Positions 3,535 to 63,787 of a DNA stretch of 64,000 nt are shown piece after piece. The position numbers and the translations under genes are program-made. The notes beneath the pieces were generated by a model. It had not been told where the DNA came from. It was given only the letters and a program-made list of their open reading frames with translations, and did no database searches. Source of the stretch: an uncultured virus (IMG/VR IMGVR_UViG_3300042992_002627) (taxonomy: Duplodnaviria > Heunggongvirae > Uroviricota > Caudoviricetes); IMG/VR virus record IMGVR_UViG_3300042992_002627; one strand, written 5' to 3'. Every line of letters starts with the position of its first letter. Position 1 is the first letter of the stretch.

Positions 3535-3572
3535 AACTCCTCTTTCTACTTTAAATTCAAGAATAAAAAATA

Positions 3573-37320: not shown

Positions 37321-37338
37321 TCACTTAAATTTTATAAC

Positions 37339-37725: not shown

Positions 37726-37727
37726 TC

Positions 37728-38057: not shown

Positions 38058-38059
38058 CC

Positions 38060-38418: not shown

Positions 38419-38420
38419 CA

Positions 38421-38750
38421 ATGAAAAAGTATTTCAAAGCAGAAAATGGACAGGAATTTCATAAGGCAATTTGTGATCATTGTTCTAAACAGGTTTATCC
38501 GAGTCATAAAAATCCACATCTTTTCTTTGGTTTTCTATGCATGGACACTAAGATGTTTGTCAGTAACGATTGTAAAAACGATTATTACCTAAAAAAAAAT
38601 AAAGGGGAGTATGGAAATGAGCATAGGCATAAGTATAGTGAAATGCCTATTCAAGTTCCTTGGAAAAACGAACCGAAATTTCTACCACTTTATGAAGAAT
38701 TATATTTTGACAATAAAATTCCATCACAGTTATTACTTTTTAACCTATAA
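38421..38750 (+). CDS. Hypothetical protein
   Basis: CxxC-containing ORF. Confidence 0.5.
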   Translation: MKKYFKAENGQEFHKAICDHCSKQVYPSHKNPHLFFGFLCMDTKMFVSNDCKNDYYLKKNKGEYGNEHRHKYSEMPIQVPWKNEPKFLPLYEELYFDNKIPSQLLLFNL

Positions 38751-38757
38751 ATAAAAT

Positions 38758-39489: not shown

Positions 39490-39698
39490 TGAAATTCACA
39501 GCAACATACACAGGAACGGATGAGCCACTTTGGAAAAACGGCAAACCATACAAGCTCTTCTTGAACCGTAACTCAATGATGGTTTACCAAGCCGAAACAA
39601 CCATCGTAAAAACATACCGAAGTCTGCATGACTTTTTAACCGACTTTAATTTAATAGTCAATCACGAGTCCAACAATAAAAAGGTAAGTAATGGATAA
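39489..39698 (+). CDS. Hypothetical protein
   Basis: Coupled ORF. Confidence 0.5.
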   Translation: MKFTATYTGTDEPLWKNGKPYKLFLNRNSMMVYQAETTIVKTYRSLHDFLTDFNLIVNHESNNKKVSNG

Positions 39699-39930
39699 AA
39701 TAGAAGCACTACTAAACGAGGCAGCAAAACTATACCAAGAAACACATGGAGCCTATTTTGTTTTAACAGCTTCAAATGACGGAAAATTTTGGAAACTATC
39801 TATTCCTTCTATTCAAGGAACTTTCAAAGGCTCCGTACAAGATGTTTTGATTGATTATATCTATTACGTTGCAAACAACAGAGAATTAGCCGGGAAGAAT
39901 TTAAAAAGCAAAAAATACAAATTATTTTAA
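39691..39930 (+). CDS. Hypothetical protein (homologue of 61832..62071)
   Basis: LLNEAxKLYxETxGA motif shared with the phage B gene. Confidence 0.6.
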   Translation: MDKIEALLNEAAKLYQETHGAYFVLTASNDGKFWKLSIPSIQGTFKGSVQDVLIDYIYYVANNRELAGKNLKSKKYKLF

Positions 39931-39942
39931 TAAAAAATAACC

Positions 39943-40128
39943 ATGCCAAGACTCAATAAACAATACACATTAGAAGTCACAGTAGAGCAGTTCCTAGAGG
40001 CCTGCTCCTTGACAGAGCTGCAAGAGATAGATTTATTGCTAAATAAATTTATCGATAAGAAAAGGTATTTTTCTAAGGAAGAAACAATAGAGATCAAAAC
40101 AAAGCTAAACTTAACAGAGAAAAAATGA
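39943..40128 (+). CDS. Hypothetical protein
   Basis: Coupled ORF. Confidence 0.5.
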   Translation: MPRLNKQYTLEVTVEQFLEACSLTELQEIDLLLNKFIDKKRYFSKEETIEIKTKLNLTEKK

Positions 40129-40385
40129 AAGACCATCAAGAAACAAAAAAACCTCAAGACGACTGGAGGCTTGAAAAAATCGAACTAGAATTTAAATCTT
40201 ATGGAGAAAACAAAGGGAAGTATGAAGGGAGAATCAGATTTCAAAATGGCGAATTTGAAAGCTTTAGCTTCAAGATAAGGCCTGAAATGGCACAACCTTA
40301 CATTAGCATTATGAGCGAAGACATCGTTAAGTGTGCTGAATCTTTAGCTTCTCGCTTAATAGATTCTTTAGGACTACAAAAGTAA
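40125..40385 (+). CDS. Hypothetical protein
   Basis: Its stop codon TAA is part of the TAAC at the attC-like site. Confidence 0.5.
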   Translation: MKDHQETKKPQDDWRLEKIELEFKSYGENKGKYEGRIRFQNGEFESFSFKIRPEMAQPYISIMSEDIVKCAESLASRLIDSLGLQK

Positions 40386-40519
40386 CGTTTTGATTGGCGA
40401 TGGGCGGGCTTTTCAGCACAAAAGTTGGTTCGTAGAAATGAACTTTCGGCTATCACAAAACTGTCAAGCGGAGACGAAACCCCGCCTATTGCCAATTTGC
40501 TCGATTATATGCCGTTTTT
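40383..40519 (-). repeat. Solitary attC-like hairpin
   Basis: TAAC-gttttg-ATTGGCGATGGGCGGG...CCCGCCTATTGCCAAT; same architecture as the 57927-59490 sites. Confidence 0.6.
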
Positions 40520-40529
40520 CTATCTGTCG

Positions 40530-41612
40530 TCATATTCCGCTTTTAATTCTGTTGTCGTGTTTGCATAACATTTGGCAATTGTCTGCTGTTGTTTTACCGC
40601 CACTGTGCCAAGGTGTAATGTGATCGGCTTCCATTTCGTTTAGTTCAAATTCAACACCGCACTTTACACAAATTCCTTTTTGTCTTTCAAACGATTCACG
40701 TTTTTGTTTATCTGTAAATGCTCTGATACTTAAATATTTCTCGTTTCGGGTCAAAACGTATTCGTAAATACCTGATTTTTTTGTTACGTCTTCGTCTTGC
40801 ATTAAGGTTGTTATTTCTTCCTCTATTTTTTTGGCATCAAATTCTTTGTCTTTGAAGTTGTTGTATAAGATACCATAATTTACGCCTTTCATTTCACGGC
40901 GATATTTTGGAAAAACAACTTTTATCCAAGTCATTAAACTTGTAAAGTATAACCACAATTCGCTTGCATTTGGCTTGTGTTGGTTTTCTGCCATATACTG
41001 CTCAATATTGTCGTTACTTAACCAACTAATTGCTGTTTCTAAATAGTCTTGTCTGATTGCCGAACCGTTCATATAGTCGTTGCCAATATTATAAGCAGCA
41101 CAACCTGTTTTACTGAAATACTTTTTAGCTTCAGTTAGCCAAGTTCCTGTATAAATTGCGTTCCGTAATTCCTGCTGAGTTAGTTTTTCGCCTGCAATGT
41201 TTATGGTTTTGAACCAGTCCAATTTTTCTTTGTCATTGCCCTCACAAAAATAAACCATCAATTTATAATCTAAAATTTGTTCTTTCTCAACATTTGTAAG
41301 ATTATGAAAGTACATTGAGTTTAATGAAAAACTGCCTGTTACATATTCGCAAATACTTATTGTTCTTTGTTGTCCGTCTAAAACTTCGTAAGTATCATCT
41401 GCGTTTTTAACCCAGTACATTACGTTTAAAGGAAAGTTCTTTATAACGGTTTCAATTACGGCATCTCTTTGTTTGTCTTTGTAAACAAATTCACGTTGAT
41501 ATTTTGGGCGAATATTCAATTTACCACTAAAGCCAACAACTCCTTCTTCGTTGTCGTTAAAATAACCTTTTGATACTTCTCGTATTGAAATTTCTTTTAA
41601 TTCTATTTTCAT
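40530..41612 (-). CDS. DUF262 plus HNH endonuclease (GmrSD-like restriction protein)
   Basis: PKYQREFVY and VLDGQQR motifs; C-terminal CxxC...ADHITPW...N...C..HDN. Confidence 0.85.
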   Translation of the reverse strand: MKIELKEISIREVSKGYFNDNEEGVVGFSGKLNIRPKYQREFVYKDKQRDAVIETVIKNFPLNVMYWVKNADDTYEVLDGQQRTISICEYVTGSFSLNSMYFHNLTNVEKEQILDYKLMVYFCEGNDKEKLDWFKTINIAGEKLTQQELRNAIYTGTWLTEAKKYFSKTGCAAYNIGNDYMNGSAIRQDYLETAISWLSNDNIEQYMAENQHKPNASELWLYFTSLMTWIKVVFPKYRREMKGVNYGILYNNFKDKEFDAKKIEEEITTLMQDEDVTKKSGIYEYVLTRNEKYLSIRAFTDKQKRESFERQKGICVKCGVEFELNEMEADHITPWHSGGKTTADNCQMLCKHDNRIKSGI

Positions 41613-42710
41613 CTATTGGATTTTCTTGTTTTTTATCAAAATTCTTGCGTAGGGTGCAATTAAGAAATTGCTATTTTCACTTATGTAATATGTACCAATT
41701 GGTTTTGTTTGCGTTTCTATTGCTAAAACACAATTTATTGCATTACCATTTTTCAATACGCCATCTTTCATTACTTTTTGCGGATTTTTATAATCTTTAT
41801 TTGGTGAAAAATTATCACGGCTATTTCCTAAACCAATTATTTCAAATTGGTCGGGATTGTATTTGTCAATAAAAGTAATTGGCACTCCAATTACACCTTT
41901 ATAATCCATTGGAATTTCTTTTGTCTTATCAACATTTATTGCATCATAGTTGTCATACTTTGGATATTCAGTTTCATTTCCATAATATGTTTTATACAAA
42001 ATTATATCTTCGTGTCTTTTTTTCGTGTCAATATTCGTGTACCAAACAATTCCTGAAACTCTTATCATTCCTTCTTTATGGTCAGTATCAGAGGCATAGT
42101 CTTCATAATGTTTGTTTATAAAATGTGCCATATTTCTATTAAATCCATAGCCTAACCATACTTTATTGGCTTTTATTAGCTTGAAGATTTCTTTATACGT
42201 TATTGAATTTTGGTGTCCAATAATTATAAATTTTTTGTCGTATTCGATTAATTGGGCAACATATTCTCTAAAAAGTGAAAATGGTGGATTTGTTACAACT
42301 ATGTCGGCTTCTTTTAATAGTTCAATACATTCTTTGCTTCTAAAATCGCCATCGCCTTTTAATGTTTTAATTCCAATTTCTTCTGGATTTGGAATATTAT
42401 CTCCGTTCTTGTCGCCTGTATATTCTAAATAAATTGCTTGTTCAGATTTGTTTTCGCTGAACAAGTCCATATCTTGATTTTTATAACAAGTAGCAACAAG
42501 TTTTTTAAGTCCTAACTGCTCAAAATTGTATGAAAAATAATGGAAGAAATTACTAATTCTTGGGTCATCGCAATTACATAAAACAACTTTGTTTTTAAAA
42601 TGTGCTTTATAGTGTCTTAATTCCTTTTCAATGTCGGACAGTTGAGTATAAAATTCATCGTTTTTTTCAGTACTTGCTTTCTTTAATTTGTCGTTTGAAT
42701 TTTTAGCCAT
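41613..42710 (-). CDS. Adenine-specific DNA methyltransferase, EcoRI family
   Basis: DEFYT, CNCDDP, GDGDFRS and VTNPPFSLFRE motifs. Confidence 0.9.
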   Translation of the reverse strand: MAKNSNDKLKKASTEKNDEFYTQLSDIEKELRHYKAHFKNKVVLCNCDDPRISNFFHYFSYNFEQLGLKKLVATCYKNQDMDLFSENKSEQAIYLEYTGDKNGDNIPNPEEIGIKTLKGDGDFRSKECIELLKEADIVVTNPPFSLFREYVAQLIEYDKKFIIIGHQNSITYKEIFKLIKANKVWLGYGFNRNMAHFINKHYEDYASDTDHKEGMIRVSGIVWYTNIDTKKRHEDIILYKTYYGNETEYPKYDNYDAINVDKTKEIPMDYKGVIGVPITFIDKYNPDQFEIIGLGNSRDNFSPNKDYKNPQKVMKDGVLKNGNAINCVLAIETQTKPIGTYYISENSNFLIAPYARILIKNKKIQ

Positions 42711-42909
42711 TTTTTCAGTTTGTTAAGGTCTTAAAGTTACGTTTTTAATTTCTGTTTCTTGTTGGTTTCGGGTCGTCCTATGCACACGAGGCTCTATTAA
42801 GCATCCGTCCTTAACTAACAAAATTCCTCTTTATCCGCTACGATCAAAAGCTGTGGTTTTTCTGACGTGTTTTTTCCCCTACCCCCCATCATCGAAAAAA
42901 ACTAAAAAA

Positions 42910-43135
42910 AATTGTAATTTTGTAATATTTGATGCAATATAGCAAAAACCCTAGAAAAAAAGCGTACATTCTATTTGTAATTTTGTAATTGATATTACAA
43001 AAAAATTGTAATCTAAAATCTTCTAACAAAAATACAAAAAGGCAAATCGCCTAAATTACAAAAATCACTTTCATAAAAAACCCTTATTTTATTGGGTCTA
43101 ACGAGTGAAAAATAACAGAATTACAGAATTACAAA
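42910..43135. repeat. Convergent TTGTAAT / ATTACA iterons, putative replication origin of phage A
   Basis: Multiple TTGTAAT on the left and ATTACA(A/G) on the right, in a non-coding AT-rich gap. Confidence 0.5.
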
Positions 43136-43232
43136 AAAATAATGCCTTTTTAAGGTATTTAAAACTACTTTTAAGTAACAAAATATACTTATAAGTAAAT
43201 TTTTTTACTATCTTCGTGCAAACGTTTCTGTA

Positions 43233-43724
43233 ATGCAACTACTTGACAAAGTACGAACTAACATCAATGCCTGCGCTATTGAACTATCGTTTGATGGCGT
43301 TTCAAAAGCATCTGTAATTGAAGGATGGCAACCTTTTTATAATTCCATCATGGAAAATGCCGAATTTCACAAAGCCGGTGTTTCCATTTCATCCATCAAT
43401 TATGCACAGGAAAGTGTGACCAGTGCCGCCGGAACCTCTTATAAACAGAAAGTAGTTTTTCGTTTCCCGAATGGCGATGCCTATCGTGCAGATCGGATAG
43501 CACTCATGCAAAAAATAAAGTTTGTCAACATCAAACTTTCCGATGGTCGATTGCTCACCATTGGCCGGAACGACTTCAATCAGAATACAAAACCTATTAT
43601 AAAAACGACCGAGAATTCAAAAGCCTGTGAAGTAGAAATAGAATCACAATCTATTTTCCCTTCCGGATATACTCCAAGTTATGATCGTTTCGGTCTTCCG
43701 GTCTTCATCCCTTTATCTTTTTAG
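43233..43724 (+). CDS. Hypothetical phage protein
   Basis: 163-aa ORF upstream of the tail fibre gene. Confidence 0.6.
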   Translation: MQLLDKVRTNINACAIELSFDGVSKASVIEGWQPFYNSIMENAEFHKAGVSISSINYAQESVTSAAGTSYKQKVVFRFPNGDAYRADRIALMQKIKFVNIKLSDGRLLTIGRNDFNQNTKPIIKTTENSKACEVEIESQSIFPSGYTPSYDRFGLPVFIPLSF

Positions 43725-43726
43725 CT

Positions 43727-45409
43727 ATGCCAACAACAAATCCATATCCGTTAAACATTCCTGCAAAGGTAAATTCGCCGGAGCTTCTTGCATGGTTCCA
43801 GCAGTTCGGAATTGATAAATACCTATCTGCTGAAGAAATCAATAAAATGAGTGCAGCTCTGCAATTTTTATATGAAAATTTAGGAGGTGGAGCATTGAGT
43901 CAATCAGGCATCACCACCCTAGGCACAATAACCATAGTAGATGACGAAGTAAACTTTGAAGACTTTGCCTGGAAGATTGACGGCGTTGACTATGAACTAG
44001 ATGCTCCAATTACCCGCGTGTTACCTTTAGCTGCTGAAGGAATGTACCGAACTCACACAGCTTACTTGACCACAGACAATGACATTCTTATTGCAGAAGG
44101 ACCGGAAGATAGTGAAGTCACCACAGAACCATCTATACCAACCGGAACATTACGTCTTCGAGCTTTCAATGTATTTGGTGAAGTGATTACTGCTGGACCT
44201 GGAGAGAGTTTGCCGTATGATATCAATTTATTGGATGAATTATTATCGCTTCCGGAAGATCCTGATTATTTTTTAATAAACAAAGAAGGTGTTGATTATA
44301 GAATAAAAAGATATTTTTTGACATTCTTTGATAAATTGAGAATGAAAACAAATTCATCTTATGTGCCATCTTTAGTTTCTGGCTACACTGATTTCTATAT
44401 GCTAAACAATAGGTTGTGTGCATACTTCACATCATCACATATTCAGATTGAAGGTAATACTGAAGCTGGAAGTAGTAGTGTTTTGAAAATGCCATTTGCT
44501 GCCGGTACAGCTGAAATAAATAGACCAGTATCTAATATAACAACTAGTCTTACCCTAGCTGCAACTCATAATTCAAGAACAGTTAGAGTTTCACCTATTG
44601 CAGCAAGCCCTGTTGATATTACTATTCCAAACCCATTAAGTGGTGACTATCTTTTTAATATAGTAAACGAGAGTGATGTAGTTGTTAAATTAATTCCTTC
44701 AGGTTATTTGATAAATGGTGTTGCTGAACCTTTTATTGTATTAGAAAAAAATGTCAATTATTGGGTTAAACGTGTAGCGACCAATAACTGGATTTTGAGT
44801 CCTAAGTCTGGTGCAACAACAGTTCCTTCAGCAACAGATTCACTAGCCGGAATAATGAAATTGTATAACTCATTCGGCATAAACACCGATGGTTCAATCC
44901 GTCAAGATTTCTTTACATCAACAATTAATAAAATTGAAAACTTCTTCATCTCAAAACAAAACGGAACATTTGGAAGTCATACTGGTGACTTGCTGGAAAC
45001 TGTTTTAAGCTCTGACGATGTTGTTGGTGGTTTTTTTGTAGCTGGTGACACGATGCTTATTTTAATTTCAGGAGAAAAATCAGCAGCTGTGGCGAATGTT
45101 ACTTATAGAATAAGATTTGGAACCACCGGAACAACTTCAGATGAATTAATTGCTACTTATACCGGAAACAATCGAGGTTTAAATATGCAAAGAGTAAATA
45201 TTTCATTTTTAAGCGGGAATTTAGTTCGTGTTATCTCTGCAACAACATCATTAATATCTGATGTTTTAGGAACTAGTGCTGTGTTTTCAAATGTTTCATT
45301 GACTTATTCATCTGCATTTAAAATAACTATCACAGCTCAATTAGGTAATGCAACAGAAACTGCTTCTATTAGAACTTTAAGAGCTTCAAAAATTAAATCC
45401 ATAACATAA
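43727..45409 (+). CDS. Tail fibre / receptor-binding protein
   Basis: 560 aa, S/T/G-rich beta composition, VPSATDSLAGIMKLY linker typical of fibres. Confidence 0.7.
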   Translation: MPTTNPYPLNIPAKVNSPELLAWFQQFGIDKYLSAEEINKMSAALQFLYENLGGGALSQSGITTLGTITIVDDEVNFEDFAWKIDGVDYELDAPITRVLPLAAEGMYRTHTAYLTTDNDILIAEGPEDSEVTTEPSIPTGTLRLRAFNVFGEVITAGPGESLPYDINLLDELLSLPEDPDYFLINKEGVDYRIKRYFLTFFDKLRMKTNSSYVPSLVSGYTDFYMLNNRLCAYFTSSHIQIEGNTEAGSSSVLKMPFAAGTAEINRPVSNITTSLTLAATHNSRTVRVSPIAASPVDITIPNPLSGDYLFNIVNESDVVVKLIPSGYLINGVAEPFIVLEKNVNYWVKRVATNNWILSPKSGATTVPSATDSLAGIMKLYNSFGINTDGSIRQDFFTSTINKIENFFISKQNGTFGSHTGDLLETVLSSDDVVGGFFVAGDTMLILISGEKSAAVANVTYRIRFGTTGTTSDELIATYTGNNRGLNMQRVNISFLSGNLVRVISATTSLISDVLGTSAVFSNVSLTYSSAFKITITAQLGNATETASIRTLRASKIKSIT

Positions 45410-45546
45410 TTATGTATTACAAAACAGACGAATCAGGAAACTATTTAGGAATAAAATCAGAAACGAATGAGGGTTGGGAGTTTTTCTCTACAACACCAGT
45501 GCCAACTGATATTGCTAGAGTAAGAAATGAAAACGGAACTTGGGTT
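45182..45546 (+). repeat. Direct repeat copy 2
   Basis: Matches window 1-~365. Confidence 0.95.
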
Positions 45547-46005
45547 TCAGCAATTTCTAATGAAGAATTAATTATTGAATATACTAAACGTATTCAAAAT
45601 GCTTTCACTTATTTAAGAAGAAGAGCTTTAGCATCATCTATTAATAAACAAGGTGAATGGGAATATATCTATGAACAGGCCGAACAGTATAAATTAAAAT
45701 ATAAAGTTGCCAAAGGTGAAATTGTAAACACTTCTGTTGAAGCTATGATTGCTGACGAAGCAAATGATTTTGGTATTACAAGCGAAAATATGAATGTTTT
45801 GATAATTCAAATGTATGAAGCTGGTGAGTTAGCTTATAATCAATTCACAGCAATGATTGAAAGGGGTCGAACAAAAGCATTGACAATGCTTGAAACGGCT
45901 AATTTTGATAAAGCATTACAAATTATTTTAATAATGGAAACCGTGCCGGAAAAATTGACAATGGAACAAGCAGAAGTATTGACAATTCAAATGATTTCTA
46001 TTTAA
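45412..46005 (+). CDS. Tail-fibre-associated protein
   Basis: Shares its N-terminus with 231..965; unrelated helical C-terminus. Confidence 0.5.
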   Translation: MYYKTDESGNYLGIKSETNEGWEFFSTTPVPTDIARVRNENGTWVSAISNEELIIEYTKRIQNAFTYLRRRALASSINKQGEWEYIYEQAEQYKLKYKVAKGEIVNTSVEAMIADEANDFGITSENMNVLIIQMYEAGELAYNQFTAMIERGRTKALTMLETANFDKALQIILIMETVPEKLTMEQAEVLTIQMISI

Positions 46006-55214: not shown

Positions 55215-56735
55215 ATGAAAACAGTAGAATCTTTAAAGGCAACAAAATCGGCAATTATTCAAATGGAAAAAGGATTGGTTCCACCGCAAGCAATTGACTT
55301 AGAAGAAGCAGTCTTGGGTGCTGTTTTAATTGATGAAAAAGGCGTTTATGATATGTTTGCAGTGATACAAACATCGGCTGTTTTTTATAAGGAGCAACAT
55401 GTTTTGATTTATGAAGCTGCTGCTGCTTTATTCGCTGAAGGATTGCCAATTGATTTGCTTACAATTTCGCAAAAGTTAAAGAGTCTAGGTACTTTGGAGC
55501 GTGTTGGCGGTGACTTTTATTTGATTGCTCTTACTCAGAAAGTTTCTTCTTCTGCTCACACGGACTACCACTGCCGGATATTAATGCAAATGTATTTACG
55601 GCGTTTAATAATCATGTTCAATTCTAAAATCACTGGACTATGTTACAATGATTCAACTGATGTGTTTGATTTGATTTCGCAATGGTCAGATGAATTTGAT
55701 AAAGTGGCTGATATTACATCGGTTGGTAGATCTACAAAAAGCCTTCCGGTTTCATTGGAAGATGTGAAAAAAAATATTGAAATGTTATCTAAAAATAAAG
55801 AAGATGTTGTGTTAAGTGGTATTCATACCGGCTTTCAAAGAATTAATAAATACACTGGTGGATATCGTGAGCAGGATTTAATAATCTTAGCAGCTCGTCC
55901 TGGTATGGGAAAAACTTCTAAAGCTTTGAAAACTGCTTTAGAGAATATTAAAAACAATGTTCCTGTTGGTTTTATAAGCGGTGAAATGTCTATGATGCAA
56001 TTAACATCGCGATTGATTGCATTGGATACTAACTTCCATTTGAATCAAATTATGAAGTACGGATTCGAAAAATCTGAATACTTCGTTACATTGCAAAATC
56101 ATGTCGATAGAATGAAAAAGTATCCATTGTTTGTTGATGATAGTGGTAAAATGGATATATCTGATGTTGTCATTGTTATTAAGAATTGGCACAGAAAGTA
56201 TGGTGTTAAGTTGGTTATTGTTGACTATGTGCAGTTGATGAGTGACCGTTCAAAGAAGGGAACACGAACGGATGAATTGGCTTCTGTTTCAAGAAGATTA
56301 AAGCTGTTAGCAAAGGAATTAAACATTACTGTAATCTTATTGGCTCAGGTTAACCGTGACTGTGAAAAGCGTGGTACATCGAAGCGTCCATTTATATCTG
56401 ACATTAAAGACTTTGGTGCTGGCGAACAGGATGCTGATATCATTGAGTTTATCTACCGACCTGAGTATTACAAACTTGAAATGGCTGAAGAAGATTACGA
56501 TCATGCGTTGGCTTATCTGTTAGATAAAGGAGCGAACACTGAAATCATCTTTGCTAAATACCGAGGTGGTGCAACAGGAACCACACTGTTGAAGTGGGTG
56601 GGTGATAAGACAAAGTTCATTGATGTTGATGATGAGTTGGATACTGCTAATTATGAAGTTGAACAACCTATCACTGTTATGTCGGCGGCTCAGGCATTTG
56701 AACCACCTATTAATTCTAACGAACCACCATTCTAA
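55215..56735 (+). CDS. dnaB: Replicative DNA helicase
   Basis: PPQAIDLEEAVLG, AARPGMGKT, VDYVQL, LAQVNR and EQDAD motifs. Confidence 0.95.
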   Translation: MKTVESLKATKSAIIQMEKGLVPPQAIDLEEAVLGAVLIDEKGVYDMFAVIQTSAVFYKEQHVLIYEAAAALFAEGLPIDLLTISQKLKSLGTLERVGGDFYLIALTQKVSSSAHTDYHCRILMQMYLRRLIIMFNSKITGLCYNDSTDVFDLISQWSDEFDKVADITSVGRSTKSLPVSLEDVKKNIEMLSKNKEDVVLSGIHTGFQRINKYTGGYREQDLIILAARPGMGKTSKALKTALENIKNNVPVGFISGEMSMMQLTSRLIALDTNFHLNQIMKYGFEKSEYFVTLQNHVDRMKKYPLFVDDSGKMDISDVVIVIKNWHRKYGVKLVIVDYVQLMSDRSKKGTRTDELASVSRRLKLLAKELNITVILLAQVNRDCEKRGTSKRPFISDIKDFGAGEQDADIIEFIYRPEYYKLEMAEEDYDHALAYLLDKGANTEIIFAKYRGGATGTTLLKWVGDKTKFIDVDDELDTANYEVEQPITVMSAAQAFEPPINSNEPPF

Positions 56736-56737
56736 TC

Positions 56738-57073
56738 ATGTCAACAGCACCAAAAAAACAAAACAGACCTTGGGTTAAAGAAACAAAAGCATTCGAAAGA
56801 CCTGTTGACTTCTCATGGTTCTATAATGACCGTAAGTGGCGTAAGGTTTCAAAGGCTTACCGTGATGCAAATCCTGTTTGTGAATGTGAACAATGCAAAG
56901 CTTCACAAACAGTTAAGCCGGCACAAGTGTGTGACCATGTCAAAGGGTTAAAGTTTCTGTTAGATAACAATATGGATCCGTATAACGCAAATGAATTACA
57001 ATCGATGTCACACGAATGTCATAATAAAAAATCCGGAAAAGAATCCCACCGTTCCGGAAGGGGTATGGGGTAA
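56738..57073 (+). CDS. HNH endonuclease (packaging-associated)
   Basis: FYNDRKWR...CEC..C...DH...CHNKKS; upstream of terS. Confidence 0.8.
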   Translation: MSTAPKKQNRPWVKETKAFERPVDFSWFYNDRKWRKVSKAYRDANPVCECEQCKASQTVKPAQVCDHVKGLKFLLDNNMDPYNANELQSMSHECHNKKSGKESHRSGRGMG

Positions 57074-57170
57074 AATCTCTACGAGGTAGCGAGGTCGTAC
57101 ATCGCTGCTTAGTCAGGATTTTACTCAGGGTTAAAAAAAGTGAGGGGGGGTTAATTTAATAATAATAGCT

Positions 57171-57617
57171 ATGAATGAAATGAAAGTTGTTTCAATTGGA
57201 AAAGGTTCTGACAATTTATTGATTGTTCCGAAGGCTCCTGTTTATTTGAATGATGAAGCTAAAAAACATTACAAAGAAATGGGAAACATTTTAGCAAAAA
57301 ACAACCGAATGAAAGAAATCTTTTTGCCGGCTTTAATTATTTATGCTGAATCTATGGCCCAGTTTGAATTTGCGATTTCTGAAATTAGAAGGAAAAATAA
57401 AGAAAAACAAGGTAGTGGTTATGTGCAAAAATTTGCAACCGGAGCACAAAACATTTCTGTGGAAGTAAGCTTGAAAAAATCTGCCATTGATGATTTATTA
57501 AAATGCTTTAAAATTTTTGGTATGGATCCAAAATCAGAAAAAGAATTAAAAGACATTACCGACCCAAATCAAGGCAACTTGTTTGAAGAAATGTTGAAAA
57601 TGAAAAAGGGCCAATAG
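57171..57617 (+). CDS. terS: Terminase small subunit, P27 family
   Basis: KAPVYLNDEAKKHY...FGMDPKS. Confidence 0.75.
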   Translation: MNEMKVVSIGKGSDNLLIVPKAPVYLNDEAKKHYKEMGNILAKNNRMKEIFLPALIIYAESMAQFEFAISEIRRKNKEKQGSGYVQKFATGAQNISVEVSLKKSAIDDLLKCFKIFGMDPKSEKELKDITDPNQGNLFEEMLKMKKGQ

Positions 57618-57644
57618 GCAACATTACCGAAAAACTAAAGCTTT

Positions 57645-57926
57645 TTGAATACAAAAAAAATATCAGCAGCAATGTTGATCTGGATTGCTTTTAAATTTTT
57701 TAAAATGAAAATCGGACAAAAAATGGTATTTGATTTAGAAGCCTGGATAGGTGAAGAAATGATTATGGAAGAACATACAGCTGCAATTTTAGACATCTGT
57801 ATTGATCCACTTGGAAGGCATGAATCAAAATGCATTGTGGTTGTCAATTCTGAAAAATATGGAATTCCTTTTTCACAAATCAAACAAGTATTGCCGGCAA
57901 ATGGGGAACAGTTAGTTCTTTTATAA
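57645..57926 (+). CDS. Hypothetical protein
   Basis: Its stop codon abuts the first attC-like site; true start uncertain. Confidence 0.4.
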   Translation: MNTKKISAAMLIWIAFKFFKMKIGQKMVFDLEAWIGEEMIMEEHTAAILDICIDPLGRHESKCIVVVNSEKYGIPFSQIKQVLPANGEQLVLL

Positions 57927-58067
57927 TTGCCAACGGCATCTACTTTGCGAAGTGGCGGATTTGGAACACCACAGCTTCAATTTAGCACTACCGTTGATTA
58001 GAATTACAAGGGTTAAAATTAGCACTGCACCCGCCATTTTGCAAAGCAAGTGTTAGCAAATCGTTTT
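57927..58067 (-). repeat. attC-like site 1
   Basis: GCCAAC...CTTTGCGAAGTGGCGG (57943-58) / CCGCCATTTTGCAAAG (58031-46)...GTTAGC. Confidence 0.75.
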
Positions 58068-58071
58068 CATT

Positions 58072-58338
58072 ATGTTTACCAATATAAAAATAGAAGAAGT
58101 TTTAATTTTTGCAAAGCAAGGGATTCAAGGATTTACCACTGATGATGGTGATATTGTTGAACCTAAAACAAAAGAGGAAGTGCTAGAAGATATAGAATTG
58201 ATTGATGATTTGTTGTCAATTATGAAATCAAAAATGCTCTTAAATAAGAAAAAAGGGTTAAAAGCCGTAATAGATGGACGATTAGCGTTAGCAGTTGCCC
58301 CCGATTCAGTTAGAATAGGTGGTACGAATCATTTTTAA
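58072..58338 (+). CDS. Cassette 1 hypothetical protein
   Basis: Fills the space between GTTAGCAAA and TTTGCCAAC. Confidence 0.6.
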   Translation: MFTNIKIEEVLIFAKQGIQGFTTDDGDIVEPKTKEEVLEDIELIDDLLSIMKSKMLLNKKKGLKAVIDGRLALAVAPDSVRIGGTNHF

Positions 58339-58408
58339 AATGTTTGCCAACGGTTCTCGGCTATATTTAGGCTGGGATTATGAAAACGAAACTTTAAATT
58401 AAAACAAA

Positions 58409-58738
58409 ATGAAAGTAGAAATTACAAAAATTATGCAAAGTACCGAAATACTAAACGAAATTAAAAATCAATTAGAACAATTAGAGCATAAAGGCTATGA
58501 TAAAAATAGTTTTAAAAGCGGTTACCTTTTAGGATATGCCAAAGCGTTGCAATTGCAACAACCTGATGTTATAAAATCGGTTTGCGGTTCGTTGCCGATT
58601 TCAAAGGTGGTTTTCTTTGAGTTGAAAAAAGGGAAATACCTTGCAAGTAATGGGGTTGAAGTAACAACGGAATTTATACTAAAAAACGAACACGCTATAT
58701 TTCACGATAATGGTTATGTGATTGTCGAAAGGCAATGA
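58409..58738 (+). CDS. Cassette 2 hypothetical protein (reads through a junction)
   Basis: The ORF spans the GTT junction at 58568-58596. Confidence 0.55.
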   Translation: MKVEITKIMQSTEILNEIKNQLEQLEHKGYDKNSFKSGYLLGYAKALQLQQPDVIKSVCGSLPISKVVFFELKKGKYLASNGVEVTTEFILKNEHAIFHDNGYVIVERQ

Positions 58739-58876
58739 CCGCTAACGTTGAGCATATACGAAGGCAGGGCTTTTAAATACCAAAGCTCGGTTACTTCCGA
58801 AAGCTCAATAGAAATACAAAAGTTGAAAGTTTGCACGTCTGCCCTGCTTTTGTATATGCATTGTTGGCAGTAGTGC
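58731..58876 (-). repeat. attC-like site 3
   Basis: GCTAAC...GCATATACGAAGGCAGGGC (58752-70) / GCCCTGCTTTTGTATATGC (58841-59)...GTTGGC. Confidence 0.8.
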
Positions 58877-58906
58877 TTTTTATTTACAAACAAAAATTAA
58901 ACAAAT

Positions 58907-59326
58907 ATGAAAATAGTAAAAATATTATTAGACGATGGAACAAGTAGAGAAGTAGGAGAAATTAAACCTTTATCTCACTTTGAAGAAAAATACCCTGAAA
59001 ATAATAAATGGTATTGGCAAAGGTGTTACGAAAGACAATTCAATAATTTTGAAGATGATATTATTGAATTTCTAAATGAAAGTAATGTTGAAGAATACGC
59101 AAAAGACCACTTAAATTTAGTTGAAGAAGACGATGTGGAAGAAAAAGATATTTCTGATTTTACTGATGCTGAAATTTTAGAAGAAATGAAAGATAGAAAA
59201 TTAAATAAAGGAGGGAATATAATTACTTCTAGTTTTATTGAAAGATTTGAAAACATTGTAAAAGCAGAAAACATTATTTTATTAGACAATTTACTTTCTG
59301 AATTAGAAACTAAACTCAATCTTTAG
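58907..59326 (+). CDS. Cassette 3 acidic hypothetical protein
   Basis: Lies between GTTGGCAGTAGTGC and GCATTACTGCCAAC. Confidence 0.6.
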   Translation: MKIVKILLDDGTSREVGEIKPLSHFEEKYPENNKWYWQRCYERQFNNFEDDIIEFLNESNVEEYAKDHLNLVEEDDVEEKDISDFTDAEILEEMKDRKLNKGGNIITSSFIERFENIVKAENIILLDNLLSELETKLNL

Positions 59327-59337
59327 CGACTCCAACG

Positions 59338-59490
59338 GCATTACTGCCAACGTTCCGCAGCTTGTGGTCAGTTGCGGATTTAAGCACCGAGCCACAAAAA
59401 AATAAACAATAACTTTAAATTTAAAAACAATGAATAAAAATAATTCCAAAGACCCGCAATTGCCACAAACTGCTGTTAGCAAATCGGCTT
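59338..59490 (-). repeat. attC-like site 4
   Basis: GCCAAC...GCAGCTTGTGGTCAGTTGCGG (59357-77) / CCGCAATTGCCACAAACTGC (59454-73)...GTTAGC. Confidence 0.8.
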
Positions 59491-59870
59491 TAAAATTTGA
59501 ATACGGATTTAATTCTGTGAATGGAATTGTAAAAAAGAGGTACTATTTAAGCGAAATACCGTTTATGCACGATAAATGCGATGTTTGGCAAATCTTACCA
59601 GTTGTTTATGTTAGGCAATTTACTGGATTTACAGACAAAAAAGAAGTTGAAATTTATCAAGGCGATATTTGTAAATACCATAAAAATACAAGTAAATGGT
59701 TAGTATCATATCATTTTGAAGTAAGGTTTAGAAATGGTGCTTTTTATGCTTATTGGGAACGTGAAATGATGGGAAAATTAGAGCAACATTGGGATTTACT
59801 TTCTCAAAAAGATATGCGAAATATTAGAGTGGTTTCAGATATTTTTCAATCAGCGCAAACTACGTCATAA
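59430..59870 (+). CDS. Cassette 4 YopX-family protein
   Basis: QFTGFTDKKEVEIYQGDI...V.F..GAF motif. Confidence 0.7.
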   Translation: MNKNNSKDPQLPQTAVSKSALKFEYGFNSVNGIVKKRYYLSEIPFMHDKCDVWQILPVVYVRQFTGFTDKKEVEIYQGDICKYHKNTSKWLVSYHFEVRFRNGAFYAYWEREMMGKLEQHWDLLSQKDMRNIRVVSDIFQSAQTTS

Positions 59871-59935
59871 GCTGTTTGCTAACTACTATATGTAAAAACC
59901 ATTTATAAACCTTAACAAAATAAACACTACACGCC

Positions 59936-60739
59936 ATGAACATCGGAAAGTACCTCGAAATGTATTCCGACGATTTAAAGTTAAAAAACTATTCGTCAAA
60001 CACAATTGAAAATTACAAATCACAAGTGGGATTATTTTTAAAACACTTTGATAAAGTAGCAACCAAGCCATCTGAGATATCAGAAAAACAAATAAAAGAA
60101 TGGTTGCTGATGGCCAACTCAATTAACGGCAGAAAACACAGAATATCTGCCGTGAAATTGTTTTACAAACTAACAGGAAAACAGCCTTTGAAGTTCCGTC
60201 ACATTGAATATCCGCGGTCCGAAAAGAAGTTACCACAAATAATTGACAAAACCTATCTATTGGAATCAATCAATAAAATACAAAACAAAAAACACAAAGC
60301 CATCATTGCTTTGGCATACTCAACCGGAATGCGAGTTTCCGAAGTATGTAATTTGTTGATTGCCGATATCGACAGCAAACGAATGATTATTACCATCCGA
60401 CAATCAAAAGGGAAAAAAGACCGCATTGTGGCATTGTCATCAAAAATACTTGAAATACTTCGCGAGTACTTCAAAGAATACAAGCCAAAAACATTTTTAT
60501 TCAACGGTCAATTTGGTGATCAGTATTCACACACGAGCTGCAACCAAATAGTAAAACAATATTTAGGAAAAGAATTTCACTTTCATCAGCTCCGGCACTC
60601 AAATGCGACAGCACTTTTAGAAGCGGGAACCGATTTGCGAATCATACAAAAACACCTGGGCCACGCGTCTAGTAAAACAACAGAAATCTACACCCACGTC
60701 AGCACCAATTTATTACAATCAATGGCATTACCAATTTAA
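59936..60739 (+). CDS. Integron-integrase-like tyrosine recombinase (short; SAM-like N-domain, no Arm domain)
   Basis: YSxNTxxxY N-terminus; TGMRVSE, KGKKDR, HQLRHSNATALLEAGTDLR and LGH..SKTTEIYTHV, with all catalytic residues present. Confidence 0.85.
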   Translation: MNIGKYLEMYSDDLKLKNYSSNTIENYKSQVGLFLKHFDKVATKPSEISEKQIKEWLLMANSINGRKHRISAVKLFYKLTGKQPLKFRHIEYPRSEKKLPQIIDKTYLLESINKIQNKKHKAIIALAYSTGMRVSEVCNLLIADIDSKRMIITIRQSKGKKDRIVALSSKILEILREYFKEYKPKTFLFNGQFGDQYSHTSCNQIVKQYLGKEFHFHQLRHSNATALLEAGTDLRIIQKHLGHASSKTTEIYTHVSTNLLQSMALPI

Positions 60740-60749
60740 AAACTCAAAG

Positions 60750-60983
60750 ATGAAAATCTTCTTCACCTCCTTTTTTCAAATCGGCTTAGTAGCAATCAAT
60801 ACCTACATGATCACGCAATTAATATGGCTCGGAATCTTTATAGTTTCATTTTTAATATCGCTATTGTGGTGTTTCAATGTGTCAAAAATATCCGTATCAA
60901 CCAGGGCAGCCAAATTAATCTACGCAACCGGTGCAGGAACCGGAGCTGTAACCGGACTTTTAATCTTAAAACTATTTATTTAA
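60750..60983 (+). CDS. Small membrane protein
   Basis: Three hydrophobic segments. Confidence 0.5.
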   Translation: MKIFFTSFFQIGLVAINTYMITQLIWLGIFIVSFLISLLWCFNVSKISVSTRAAKLIYATGAGTGAVTGLLILKLFI

Positions 60984-61171
60984 CTAAAAATAAAGTCATG
61001 CCAGAAACTGAAAAAGACAACTTGATCAAAAATCTTTACAAGTGTATCGAAGAACAAAAAGCGACAATAGAAATGCTTTACAAAGAAATAGATTTATTAA
61101 AAAAACCGACTAAAAAATGAAACCATATTGTTGATGTCAACAAAAAGGTTTTTAACTAAAAAACAAAAACA

Positions 61172-61435
61172 ATGAACCCAAAACAATTTGCACAAACATC
61201 CCACCGCATTGCTGTATTATCGGCATTGTTGGTTGAATCGTTGGAAGATATCAATGCATCATCCGCTGCAGCTTTAGATTTAAAGCAAAAAGCCAAAGAA
61301 ATCATTCCGCATTGTGAAAGAATGCTCGAAGAAGTTTACACCGCCAAAAACATCACTTCCGGCACCTACTTTAACGAGCTTTCAAATAAAGTAGATACCG
61401 TAATCCGTAAAAATTTTGAAATAATAACGATGTAA
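61172..61435 (+). CDS. Hypothetical protein
   Basis: ORF with A-rich leader. Confidence 0.55.
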   Translation: MNPKQFAQTSHRIAVLSALLVESLEDINASSAAALDLKQKAKEIIPHCERMLEEVYTAKNITSGTYFNELSNKVDTVIRKNFEIITM

Positions 61436-61437
61436 CC

Positions 61438-61830
61438 ATGAAAAAACACACCTTCGAAACCTATCAAAAAAAAATAATTGATTCAAACATCAAAAACCTT
61501 GAACACGAGCCAATTGTAAAACTTTGTTATGTTTTTTATTGTTTCATCACTGAAATTTATGAAAATTATATTGAAGATTGCGGAATCCCGTATTCTCCCA
61601 GCAGTGTAAATCGCGAATATTGCGAAAAGGTACTTAGTGTTTACCGAACATTATTTAATCGAATTCCTTCTTTAAACCAGGATCAATTGAACTGCTTTAT
61701 TCTTAGTATAAACGGTAATGATTTTAGTTATTACCAAGCACTTATGAATGTTAGATATAAAATTGAAGATGCTGAAAGATTTAAACCCGAAAACTTCGAC
61801 TTGTTTCACGATCAATTTAAAGCTTACTAA
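61438..61830 (+). CDS. Hypothetical protein
   Basis: Coupled ORF. Confidence 0.5.
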   Translation: MKKHTFETYQKKIIDSNIKNLEHEPIVKLCYVFYCFITEIYENYIEDCGIPYSPSSVNREYCEKVLSVYRTLFNRIPSLNQDQLNCFILSINGNDFSYYQALMNVRYKIEDAERFKPENFDLFHDQFKAY

Positions 61831-61831
61831 A

Positions 61832-62071
61832 ATGAGCCTTTTAAAACTACTTAACGAAGCAAAAAAACTCTACAGCGAAACCCGTGGAGCTGCATTTGTC
61901 ATCACCGGTTCCAACTGTGGTGAATATTGGTTCTTAAAAATGCCTTCCATTGGTGAAACCTTTGAAAGTGTGCATTTAGAAACCGTATTGGAAGATTATA
62001 TTGACCTGGTACTTAACAACCGTGTCAAAGTGGCGAAAAGAAAAAACACAACAAAAGAATTCCGACTATAA
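61832..62071 (+). CDS. Hypothetical protein (homologue of 39691..39930)
   Basis: ATG at 61832; shared motif with the phage A gene. Confidence 0.6.
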   Translation: MSLLKLLNEAKKLYSETRGAAFVITGSNCGEYWFLKMPSIGETFESVHLETVLEDYIDLVLNNRVKVAKRKNTTKEFRL

Positions 62072-63787
62072 ATGCAACCAGCCCAATCCCAACTCGAATC
62101 AATCCCTTTTCAATATGCAGCCGCCGTTCGTTCCGGTGAAATTACTGTTGGAAAAAAAATAAAACTTGCTGTCGAGCGGTTTTATCAATGGATAGAAACC
62201 GCTGAAGCCGATGGTTATCACCTCGATCATGCAACTGGCATGTTTGCAGTTACGTTCTTTGAAAACTTCCTGAACCATACCGAAGGAAAAATGGCGGGAA
62301 AACCGTTTGTGTTGGCACCATTTCAGCAATTTACCATTTACAACGTGTTCGGGTGGAAAGATGCCACCGGCAAACGCCGAATCAAAACCATTTACGACAA
62401 ACGAGCCAAGAAAAACGGAAAAACGGCTGAAATGGCAGGTGTGGCATTATATTGCATGTCGTTTGATGAAGAAATCAAAGCTCAGGTGTTTATTGGGGCC
62501 ACAAAAGAAGAACAGGCACGCCTTTGTTGGAATGCGGCCAAAGATTTCATTGATTCCTTTGTGGCAAACACTCGTTTAAAGCAATTGGGCTTTCGGACCA
62601 TGCAAAACAAGGTGATTTTCGAACCTACCAACAGTTTTCTTCGTCCGTTGGGTGGCGATAGTAAAACCCAGGATGGAATTAACAGCCATTTATCGATAAT
62701 TGATGAATATCACGCTCATGCAACCGATGGCGTGAAAGAAAACCTTGAATCATCAGCAGTTCAACGCTTGCAACCTTTAACTTGGCACATCACAACAGCC
62801 GGAACTAACATTGCATCGGTGTGTAAAAATTATGAAGATTCGGTTATTGAAGTGTTGGAAGGCCGAAAAAAAGACGACCGCCTTTGGATTATGATCCATG
62901 ATTTAGATGAAGATGACGATTGGAACGATGAAAGTAAATGGATAAAAGCCAATCCATTATTAAACCAAGGACTTTCAATCGACAATATTCGCGATGAATA
63001 CCTTAAATGTGTCAATCAACCTTCTAAAATTCCGAATTTCAAAACCAAACATCTAAACATGTGGGTCGATGCTCCAAAAATTTGGATTCCAACCGAAATA
63101 TGGCAAAAAAATAAAATTTCCGAAATACCGTTATCTAAGTTCCAAAAACATGGAAGCTATGCAGCTCTCGATTTGTCAACCACTACAGATTTAACAGCAT
63201 TTGCTATACTTTCCGAACCCGATGAACACGAAAAGCGATATTTAAAAGTATTACTGTTTTGTCCTGAAAAAACAATCGAAAGACGAAGCAAAGAAGACCG
63301 TGTTCCTTACAAATATTGGGCAGATGCAGGTTTTATCATTGCAACACCCGGTGATGTTGTAGATCATGCCGTTGTAGAAGATAGAATTCGCATTGAATAC
63401 CACAAACATGCAGTAAAACGCATCGAAATAGATCGCTATTTGGCAACAAATATCACATCAAATTTACAAGAAGAAGGTTTTGAAGTGGCCTATTTTACAC
63501 AAACAATTACAAATTATTCGTTTCCAACCAAAGAATTTGAACGCCTTGTTTACTTAAATAAAATAATTCACGACGGTAATCCCGTTTTAGAATGGATGCT
63601 TTCCGGGTGTGTGGTGATTTCCGACACAAACGAAAACATCCGAATATCAAAATCACGTTCACACGCAGGAGGTAAGAGAATCGATGGAATAATAGCTTCA
63701 ATCATGGCATTAGGCGGTTCGTTATCACCAAAAGAAGAAAAATCAAAATACGAAAAACCAATGGATGAATCCGAAATCTATATATAA
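62072..63787 (+). CDS. terL: Terminase large subunit (Terminase_1 / HK97-like)
   Basis: KKNGKT Walker A, IIDEYH Walker B, ITTAG, LDLSTTTDLTA and KRIDG motifs. Confidence 0.95.
   Translation: MQPAQSQLESIPFQYAAAVRSGEITVGKKIKLAVERFYQWIETAEADGYHLDHATGMFAVTFFENFLNHTEGKMAGKPFVLAPFQQFTIYNVFGWKDATGKRRIKTIYDKRAKKNGKTAEMAGVALYCMSFDEEIKAQVFIGATKEEQARLCWNAAKDFIDSFVANTRLKQLGFRTMQNKVIFEPTNSFLRPLGGDSKTQDGINSHLSIIDEYHAHATDGVKENLESSAVQRLQPLTWHITTAGTNIASVCKNYEDSVIEVLEGRKKDDRLWIMIHDLDEDDDWNDESKWIKANPLLNQGLSIDNIRDEYLKCVNQPSKIPNFKTKHLNMWVDAPKIWIPTEIWQKNKISEIPLSKFQKHGSYAALDLSTTTDLTAFAILSEPDEHEKRYLKVLLFCPEKTIERRSKEDRVPYKYWADAGFIIATPGDVVDHAVVEDRIRIEYHKHAVKRIEIDRYLATNITSNLQEEGFEVAYFTQTITNYSFPTKEFERLVYLNKIIHDGNPVLEWMLSGCVVISDTNENIRISKSRSHAGGKRIDGIIASIMALGGSLSPKEEKSKYEKPMDESEIYI

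Follow-up and report, generated by a model that had tools for sequence, protein, structure and literature searches.

In a 64,000-nucleotide (nt) stretch of DNA from an uncultured Caudoviricetes virus (IMG/VR record IMGVR_UViG_3300042992_002627), referred to in full as the window, the region at 57.9-60.7 kb, which holds a cassette array and the gene of a Xer-like tyrosine recombinase between the terminase genes terS and terL, is probably an integron-like cassette platform carried by a phage, in which each cassette consists of a hairpin and the gene behind it, and in which some genes start inside the hairpin loop. The array contains four open reading frames (ORFs) on the + strand, in the same orientation as terS, terL and the recombinase gene (Table 1). 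A reading made from the letters alone without database searches (the sequence-only reading) had described attC-like hairpins lying upstream of these genes, and had proposed that such a site doubles as a portable translation start and N-terminal tag for captured DNA.

The short boxes are not enriched across the window (29 matches versus 27.4 expected, and 19 versus 14.0 expected); the significance of the hairpins comes from relatives rather than from short motifs. As relatives we took the homologues of the recombinase with 49-89% identity, which derive from 80 viral contigs. A strand-symmetric scan for YAAC...GTTR hairpins of 60-150 nt, adopted after too strict or strand-biased scans had been set aside, revealed 158 hairpins in the 294 kb upstream of the recombinase genes versus 24 in the 420 kb downstream, i.e., an approximately 9-fold higher density upstream. 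The plan common to the 80 contigs consists of hairpins of ~125 nt (YAAC...GTTR) located 5' of the recombinase gene, co-oriented genes, and a fixed junction at which YAAC is followed directly by TACTATATGTAAA. Hairpin lengths cluster at 124-129, 85-91, and 68-75 nt.

An alignment of 52 hairpins, three of which are from the window, was analyzed with RNAalifold and gave 24 consensus pairs, 18 of them with compensatory changes. This program replaced the counting of pairs in a fixed register, as 3- and 4-nt spacers are mixed among the hairpins and no single register fits them all. The consensus comprises a fixed 5-bp foot (YAACG paired with TGTTR), a 4-nt bulge on the 5' side, and two G.T wobbles that occur in 51 of the 52 sequences. 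Paired cells reach 90.1%, compared with 64.2% in column shuffles, none of which attained the observed value in 500 trials, and with 38-50% when the partners were slid. The + (coding) strand is the better folder in 137 of the 158 hairpins (20 show the opposite, with one tie), which fits the consensus, as each G.T wobble turns into a C.A mismatch when the opposite strand folds.

The hairpins thus display the features of attC-type sites, namely an imperfect hairpin, AAC/GTT boxes, an unpaired spacer, a variable loop, and structure that is conserved over sequence. In addition, the 5-14 bases past GTTR are the reverse complement of the bases preceding the next YAAC (e.g., GTTAtgagta / tactcaTAAC in locus L003), so that each gene lies between inverted boxes, as in integron cassettes. 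Of 151 intervals between hairpins, 135 have their longest open frame on the strand of the recombinase gene, 14 have it on the opposite strand, and two are ties. These counts support the orientation that had been proposed from the window, with hairpins placed 5' of + strand ORFs that face the recombinase. As separate observations, hairpins of the same class flank the recombinase gene on both sides in locus L074 (2866-4400 after its start), and locus L069 carries two hairpins only ~20 nt apart (-845 and -738), possibly an empty cassette.

Three of the four hairpins that had been claimed in the window do fold when treated as single-stranded DNA: E_A (folded region 57922-58070, -20.6 kcal/mol, 3 of 200 shuffles as good), E_C (58738-58875, -19.7 kcal/mol, 5 of 200) and E_D (59340-59489, -16.0 kcal/mol, 26 of 200). 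Their - strands fold worse, with z scores of -0.33, -1.28, and -0.79, respectively. The fourth, E_B, was ruled out as a hairpin, as the region 58338-58590 has a z score of +1.16, with 177 of 200 shuffles as good; its left box is combined with a right arm unrelated to it, and no pairing exists between the two. The leader AACTTTAAATT...ATG, which had been placed in two loops, is indeed present at both positions (58390-58413 and 59411-59434; 24 nt, 88% identical), but at the former it is not enclosed by an intact loop. The right arms of E_B (58536-58583) and E_D (59443-59490) are 77% identical over 48 nt and are read in the same frame. Complementary cassette ends are found here as well: the inverted boxes 58863-58876 and 59338-59351 are complementary at 13 of 14 positions, and 59475-59483 (GTTAGCAAA) pairs with 59875-59883 (TTTGCTAAC). 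At the distal end of the array, contigs from three lake metagenomes leave the window at 57932/57933, within the CAAC of E_A. The 88-, 109-, and 139-aa (amino acid) ORFs have no homologues within the 80 related loci. The Bacteroidota -7 promoter motif TAnnTTTG does not occur in the hairpins or gaps of 57000-62100, and its single + strand match in that interval, within ORF 58907-59326, is too weak to use.

Table 1. Features of the cassette platform and its flanking backbone genes in the window; a slash in a sequence marks the docking junction.
Feature	Position	Strand	Description
E_A hairpin	57927-58065	+	TTGCCAACGG ... TGTTAGCAAATCG; distal array end
Cassette ORF, 88 aa	58072-58338	+	start 17 nt past GTTA of E_A; no Pfam family
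E_B composite site	58344-58580	+	TTGCCAACGG as left box; A-rich leader that holds ATG 58409; right arm unrelated to the left box, ending in TGTTATAAAATCGG
Chimeric ORF, 109 aa	58409-58738	+	head residues 1-52; junction DVIKSVC across GTT box; body residues 60-109
E_C hairpin	58741-58870	+	CGCTAACG ... TGTTGGCAG; 19-nt arms, 89% complementary
Cassette ORF, 139 aa	58907-59326	+	start 41 nt past GTTG; between inverted boxes 58863-58876 and 59338-59351; no Pfam family
E_D hairpin	59344-59487	+	CTGCCAACG ... TGTTAGCAAATCGG; loop has A-rich leader and ATG 59430
YopX-like ORF, 146 aa	59430-59870	+	PF09643, E 2.5e-11, 44.1 bits (gathering cutoff 22.4)
Inferred cassette 4 (E_D and YopX)	59351-59882	+	532 nt, C of CAAC through AA of docking TAAC
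attI-like docking site and recombinase leader	59875-59935	+	TTTGCTAAC/TACTATATGTAAAAACC...
Xer/XerA-like tyrosine recombinase, 267 aa	59936-60739	+	PF00589, E 4.2e-40
Terminase small subunit (terS)	57171-57617	+	PF05119, E 9.7e-10; upstream backbone gene
Terminase large subunit (terL)	62072-63787	+	PF20441 and PF03354; downstream backbone gene

The variable DNA begins at a fixed point beside the recombinase gene. Nucleotide homology with the window starts at 59862-59880 (TGCTAAC) in 36 of the 80 loci and usually ends near the recombinase stop codon; the junction of YAAC with TAYTATATGTAAA is conserved, and all sequence to its left differs. Backbones that are 92-98% identical (L044/L046, L006/L011-12, L007/L009) lose their homology exactly at -56/-63 from the recombinase start, and metagenome contigs also break from the window at 59878. 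The docking region thus looks like an attI-type site at which the array begins.

As the boxes are palindromic, two anatomies fit these sites: a cut at G/TT, by which a cassette would consist of a gene and the hairpin behind it, or a cut at AA/C, by which it would consist of a hairpin and the gene behind it. The latter is favoured by four lines, of which the first is that the docking sequence abuts YAAC. Moreover, in an all-against-all comparison, shared blocks in which a hairpin is flanked by 60 nt or more of further shared DNA to a single side had this flank downstream in six rows (four events) and upstream in none; of the 105 shared blocks classified, 21 were ambiguous and one extended on both sides. 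In locus L174, homology spans 59397-59883 of the window and stops at TAAC, after which L174 continues with another hairpin. Finally, contigs of four lake-water metagenomes were compared with the region, and an X10 contig of 236 nt (134 + 102, depth 3.6), otherwise identical to the window, joins 59348 to 59881 and thereby skips 532 nt, with three letters (AAC) at the joint that fit either side. The skipped DNA is hairpin E_D together with the YopX gene; the start codon thus moves as part of the unit that includes its gene, and the platform does not provide it. Two other joints (58747 to 59880 and 58881 to 59338) have sides of only 30 and 28 nt with unknown letters between them, and were not relied on. 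The variation of the array is seen as natural polymorphism, for which we propose recombinase-dependent excision and insertion.

We then turn to the starts inside the sites. Residues 52-141 of the YopX-like ORF match positions 48-123 of the PF09643 profile. Read from ATG 59430, which lies in the loop of E_D, the ORF gives ...DPQLPQTAVSKS, and its frame crosses the right arm and the box TGTTAGCAAATCGG to yield PQLPQTAVSKS, the first ~20 codons being loop and right arm of E_D; translation from this codon would give a product bearing MNKNNSKDPQLPQTAVSKS. As no ATG, GTG, or TTG exists between the GTT box and the conserved strand KFEYGF, the predicted YopX gene must start inside its own hairpin, in line with the sequence-only reading. 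In an alignment of 30 YopX homologues, 20 carry a head of ~20 residues, while 10 begin at the domain with M-x-x-x-I-K-F-E-Y-G-F. The heads end in ..V(S/G/M/R)xxA in 16 cases and in ..LANRL in four, and these two endings would correspond to one box, GTTAGCAAATCG, read in two frames, as judged from the proteins and not from their DNA. A search for YopX loci with this alignment returned only distant YopX genes, leaving L174 as the sole useful locus. There, a YopX protein of 91% identity follows the same E_D site with the same loop and compensated arms, and the head changes from PQLPQTAV to VPQCDKTAV alongside the compensating changes in the left arm. It is therefore the hairpin, not the protein, that dictates the head sequence.

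Starts inside the site extend beyond YopX. Among 135 + strand cassette ORFs of the relatives, the first in-frame ATG is inside the hairpin in 28, i.e., in about one cassette in five, and after it in 101 (5-979 nt past the hairpin, mostly 15-50 nt after GTTR); five have it before the hairpin and one ORF has no ATG. For 17 of the 28 ORFs with an ATG in the hairpin, the 80 nt that follow GTTR hold no further ATG, and in 21 of the 28 the GTT serves as a valine codon. An A/T-rich leader (..TTAAATTTAAAAA..) precedes the loop ATGs and the post-hairpin ATGs alike, so that the AACTTTAAATT motif is an ordinary cassette leader and not a property of the loop. The idea that the platform provides a start for any captured DNA is thus not supported in this form, given the 532-nt unit of hairpin plus gene, the four downstream events versus none upstream, and the 101 of 135 ORFs that start after the hairpin. 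We amend it as follows: the start normally goes with the site of the same cassette, and parts are occasionally re-paired in frame at the GTT box.

Such re-pairing is illustrated by ORF 58409-58738, which reads ...LQLQQPDVIKSV. As had been noted from its sequence, the ORF runs across a junction, with DVIKSVC over the GTT box; nevertheless, the site beneath is composite and does not fold, and the start is therefore not in the loop of an intact site. Its head module (M.STEILNEIKNQLEQLEHKGYDKNSFKSGYLLGYAKALQLQQP) is found with 80-98% identity on at least six other, unrelated tails, some of which are short and perhaps mere read-through, and others of which give proteins of 132-172 aa. Its body module (GSLPISKVVFFELK.GKYLASNGVEVTTEFILK.EH.IFHDNGYVIVERQ) stands behind at least 10 other heads, and 9 of 14 body proteins of 27-88 aa are joined at ..(D/S/A)V(S/M), i.e., at the GTT box. 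The peptides predicted to recur on unrelated proteins do so. At the DNA level, locus L167 has a right arm and GTTAGC immediately before the body but no left arm, and loci L168-L172, which carry the C-module, have another head and neither a GTT box nor a hairpin candidate. In two of the four lake metagenomes (X2 and X14), the head region 58361-58662 is covered at 4-5 times the depth of its flanks, and metagenome contigs depart from it at 58397 and 58563, so that this region has several other contexts in the same communities. At the protein level, heads and bodies thus appear to be re-paired, often at the recombination core, and the anticipated fusion proteins do arise; ORF 58409-58738 is one of these chimeras, and the site beneath it no longer has a hairpin.

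The recombinase best matches XerA-type enzymes (4a8e and 5hxy), with which it aligns end to end. Its scores remain below the family cutoffs of NF040815 (184 versus 220), TIGR02224 (162 versus 335), and TIGR02225 (158 versus 330), and TIGR02249 gives 134 bits (cutoff 265), split over two stretches. Alignment with IntI4 (2a3v) covers 12-180/11-182 and 212-257/262-307; between these segments the phage protein has 31 residues where IntI4 has 79, i.e., ~48 are missing, and the IntI-specific additional domain, which lies around patch III of the integrase, is therefore absent. A domain scan identified only the SAM-like and catalytic domains.

Chromosomal homologues of the recombinase in Bacteroidota share 40-46% identity and are longer (347-384 aa in the four measured), and the four that were scanned reach 220-244 bits with NF040815, at or above the cutoff of 220. 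The 52 chromosomal loci scanned contain 50 hairpins of the 120-135-nt class downstream of the recombinase gene versus four upstream, and the - strand is the better folder in 36 of those 50; in the five loci that were mapped, a hairpin follows most + strand genes. An attI-like motif, TATATACnnnnGTTR, is located 70-130 nt past the recombinase stop codon and resembles the reverse complement of the phage junction (ACATATAGTAGTTAG). The chromosomal relatives are thus built gene-then-hairpin with the opposite strand preference, which makes the phage layout truly inverted. Judged by site polarity, the phage and chromosomal arrays do not differ in the side of the docking site on which they lie, and it is the genes and the recombinase of the phage that are flipped onto the folded strand. 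Arrays of ~125-nt hairpins downstream of recombinases were noted in the Bacteroidota contigs L091-L162 (e.g., L155 5804-10795, L108 5825-10798, and L114 5801-10786), of genera including Flavobacterium, Winogradskyella, Maribacter, and Aquimarina. Their Xer-like recombinases carry ~100 extra N-terminal residues, and many of these loci hit the contig edge soon after the recombinase gene, as though the arrays break assemblies.

Building on the observed anatomy, covariation, polarity, cassette-precise polymorphism, and protein mosaics, we propose the following mechanism, in which we infer from comparative and population data how the folded strand reacts, where within AAC it is cleaved, and that loop ATGs are translated. 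The recombinase gene would sit beside a docking site, ...YAAC/TACTATATGTAAA, with a row of one-gene cassettes upstream. Each cassette would begin with an imperfect hairpin of ~125-145 nt (5' YAACG, 4-nt bulge, covarying stem, two fixed G.T pairs, variable loop, and 3' TGTTR) and end with a box that can pair with its own GTTR box. The coding strand would fold, and the recombinase would exchange strands at AA/C of the 5' box, so that a cassette of hairpin and gene behind it could be excised, or inserted beside the recombinase gene. As the site is located 5' of the gene on the sense strand, the translation start can lie just after the site or within its loop, and the recombination signal overlaps the translation start. 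Where the start is in the loop, as in YopX, the first ~15-25 residues of the protein would come from the right arm and GTT box, and this head would travel with its own cassette. A rarer exchange at or near the GTT box may re-pair heads and bodies in frame, either through recombination of the other, less favoured strand, or through short-homology recombination at the conserved box.

Several points weigh against this mechanism. The hairpins were selected by a fold criterion, which inflates the pairing percentages, although the column-wise compensation is not explained by such a selection; and E_D by itself is an unexceptional fold. The cassette-precise deletion rests on one contig of 236 nt with a depth of 3.6. 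Sharing of the hairpin only dominates the comparison of loci (77 of the 105 blocks), and in run X14 an identical E_D is followed by DNA that differs by at least 10%, so that the link between hairpin and gene must often be broken, for which exchange at AA/C alone does not account. At E_B and in L167, right arms occur without left arms. The recombinase lacks the domain that published work on IntI describes as defining for integron integrases and necessary for attC recombination (PMC9668308, PMC8138268). Finally, the predicted proteins in databases, on which the mosaics are read, mirror gene callers and not translation.

These difficulties have to be set against those of other explanations. If exchange took place at G/TT, the hairpin would belong to the upstream unit, and a captured body lacking its own start and promoter would be fused to a start and tag that the site carries as a portable unit. 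In favour of this are the occurrence of the ORF 58409 head on at least six unrelated tails and of its body behind at least 10 heads, with 9 of 14 joined at ..V(S/M), as well as the hairpin-only blocks, the changing DNA behind the identical E_D in X14, and loci L023/L027, which have GTTG...YAAC in common but not the hairpin. Against this stand the deletion that takes the hairpin along with its own gene, the absence of upstream-plus-hairpin blocks compared with four hairpin-plus-downstream events, a docking junction conserved at YAAC and not at GTTR, the 101 of 135 ORFs with their own ATG past the site, and the loop and YopX kept together in L174, and we regard exchange at G/TT as the general rule as unlikely. 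Still less probable in our estimation is that the loop ATGs are unused, the true starts being downstream or non-canonical and the heads being frames open by chance or chosen by gene callers. Eleven of the 28 in-hairpin ATGs do have another in-frame ATG at most 57 nt after GTTR, and the C-module also exists as a 51-aa call beginning at the module (P0155). Nevertheless, the first alternative start of YopX after GTT is a GTG that would delete KFEYGF, which is kept in all aligned homologues including the headless ones. The same leader precedes both kinds of ATG, and the in-hairpin frames stay open through arms of differing sequence; by contrast, only 12 of the 101 post-hairpin ORFs are open for at least 30 nt into the hairpin.

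Alternatively, the hairpins might act at the RNA level, in termination or processing, or simply mark places of frequent homologous recombination, with the recombinase being an unrelated lysogeny integrase or dimer resolvase. The wobbles are compatible with G.U pairs on the transcribed strand, T-runs follow many right boxes, and the homologues in phages Freya, Leef, and Ingeline are annotated simply as integrases in the relevant part of the published account (PMC8776804). This explanation is very improbable in view of the chromosomal relatives, where the non-coding strand folds better (36 of 50), the complementary cassette ends, the onset of variation exactly at the recombinase-proximal YAAC, and the ~9-fold excess of hairpins upstream of the recombinase gene. 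We give hardly any credence to a shufflon-like system, in which the recombinase would flip box-flanked segments instead of excising them: inverted R boxes do surround every ORF, and 14 of 151 intervals have their longest frame on the - strand, but 135 of 151 are co-oriented and the variants seen are a deletion and replacements, with no inversions. Cassettes of a hairpin and the gene behind it, exchanged at AA/C, thus remain our preferred interpretation.

Our literature searches revealed no account of the phage form or of genes that start within such sites. The phage system resembles integrons (IntI, attI, and attC, as in class 1 and the chromosomal integron of Vibrio cholerae) in its tyrosine recombinase beside a docking site where variable DNA begins, in one-gene cassettes between imperfect hairpins with AAC/GTT boxes, an unpaired spacer, and a variable loop, in complementary cassette ends with one strand folding better, and in a recombinase and array that diverge relative to site polarity. 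It is unlike them in that its recombinase is Xer/XerA-like without the ~48-residue IntI domain, its genes are on the folded strand and point to the docking site and the recombinase, its site is 5' of the gene and can contain the start codon, its host is a phage, and a Pc-type arrangement is not evident. On this comparison, the system would work like an integron, but it fails to show two of the defining features, the IntI domain and the gene/site polarity. In class 1 integrons, attI1 or an upstream cassette can supply the start codon (ORF-11; AAC(6')-Ib N-terminal variants), and the likeness is that a site or neighbouring unit gives translation initiation and extra N-terminal residues. There this is occasional and at the platform end, whereas in the phage form it is the cassette's own hairpin loop, read through the recombination core, in about one-fifth of the cassettes.

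The rAID-1 elements of gut Bacteroidales (Ross et al. 2019, bioRxiv 10.1101/471110) are described there as arrays of small genes with repetitive intergenic sequences and a XerD-like recombinase, "reminiscent of integrons", and are delimited by a 5' XerD-like recombinase followed by at least two co-directional low-GC genes with repetitive intergenic sequences. Our chromosomal homologues show this arrangement, with a 5' recombinase of 347-384 aa and co-directional genes that are each followed by a ~125-nt hairpin, although the recombinase of B. fragilis was compared by layout only. The window and its viral relatives do not, as the array is upstream of the recombinase gene; the phage recombinase is also shorter (267 aa) and 3' of the array, the genes are inverted relative to the sites, and the cargo looks like counter-defence (methyltransferases, Mom, and Acb2/Tad1) and not like immunity genes. 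Integrase-less attC clusters (CALINs) were reported in virulent phages, including Polaribacter phage P12002L, with sites tested with IntI1 (Qi et al. 2023, PMC9892861). They share with our system hairpin recombination sites and DNA methyltransferase cargo in phages, including a Flavobacteriaceae phage, but in the description of these clusters no associated recombinase was found. Phage P12002L contained no homologue of our recombinase and no intergenic hairpins of the class described here, the two weak candidates both being in coding regions.

More distant homologues of the recombinase (33-38% identity), in Freya-type phages whose hairpins and docking sequence differ from those of the window, were annotated as integrases and, in the passages concerned, interpreted as no more than a hint of possible lysogeny (Bartlau et al. 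2021, PMC8776804). Where a 5-kb query is shared, ten cultured isolates of the Polaribacter phage Freya show 99.4-100% identity, and they differ by 0-4.1 kb directly upstream of the recombinase homologue, which looks like cassette gain and loss among isolates of one enrichment series. In the Freya/Danklef records this variable DNA holds small ORFs (e.g., L081, Freya_10, 1-4147), and in four of them the match starts ~49 nt before the gene of the recombinase homologue.

The cargo of the relatives is mostly without assignment, as 22 of 131 cassette ORFs have a Pfam match (E ≤ 0.001) and 109 have none. The matches include eight DNA methyltransferases, Mom, an Acb2/Tad1 hairpin-domain protein, two YopX proteins, a GNAT protein, and a dATP/dGTP pyrophosphohydrolase. 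The Acb2/Tad1 cassette (L014 5605-5895, 31 bits, cutoff 27) and the Mom-family cassette (L008 3221-3829, 92.7 bits) are candidate counter-defence genes.

The host of the platform is a Flavobacterium-type phage from lake water; the named homologues of the YopX ORF are from Flavobacterium, and lake-water metagenomes, with no RNA run among them, are the sequencing runs in which the region occurs. As a whole, the window is a composite. Its positions 36001-45211 match, at 100% identity, the end of a complete virus record of 45,284 bp with terminal repeats (G001), which covers only 1-45.2 kb of the window (100% identical where tested) and has no match to 56700-62100. A stretch of ~465 nt after this match (45109-45573) is 94% like the start of G001, followed by divergence into a second phage-like genome, to which the array belongs. 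The window may hold two related phages that were joined by assembly or lie in tandem. In the first phage, a 414-aa ORF (30873-32117, - strand) shows weak similarity (30% over 131 aa) to the catalytic part of the small recombinase; it resembles an ordinary large integrase, with no adjoining hairpin array. Between the recombinase gene and terL, five small + strand ORFs occupy 60750-62071 with no hairpins among them. The first (60750-60983) has predicted membrane character, and homologues of two of the five are found near the recombinase gene in L028, L032, and L040, downstream of it in L028 and L040.

Integrons are the textbook case of gene capture through folded single-stranded sites, for which a special integrase domain is held essential, and a simpler Xer-like enzyme is here tied to covarying hairpin sites in many Bacteroidota phages. 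We speculate, with considerably less confidence than in the platform itself, that the sites are selected two-in-one modules serving both recombination and the start or in-frame head, and that exchange at the GTT foot might permit exon-shuffling-like trials in which small counter-defence proteins gain new pairings of head and body, the driver being a Xer-like enzyme able to read folded DNA although it has no IntI domain. In practical terms, gene callers and integron finders will mis-set such starts or miss such arrays. The system offers a testable case of one DNA element with both roles, and of protein halves that are re-paired in frame where recombination takes place, and its reversed polarity, together with the methyltransferase, Mom, and Acb2/Tad1 cargo, points to a cassette market for phage counter-defence genes.

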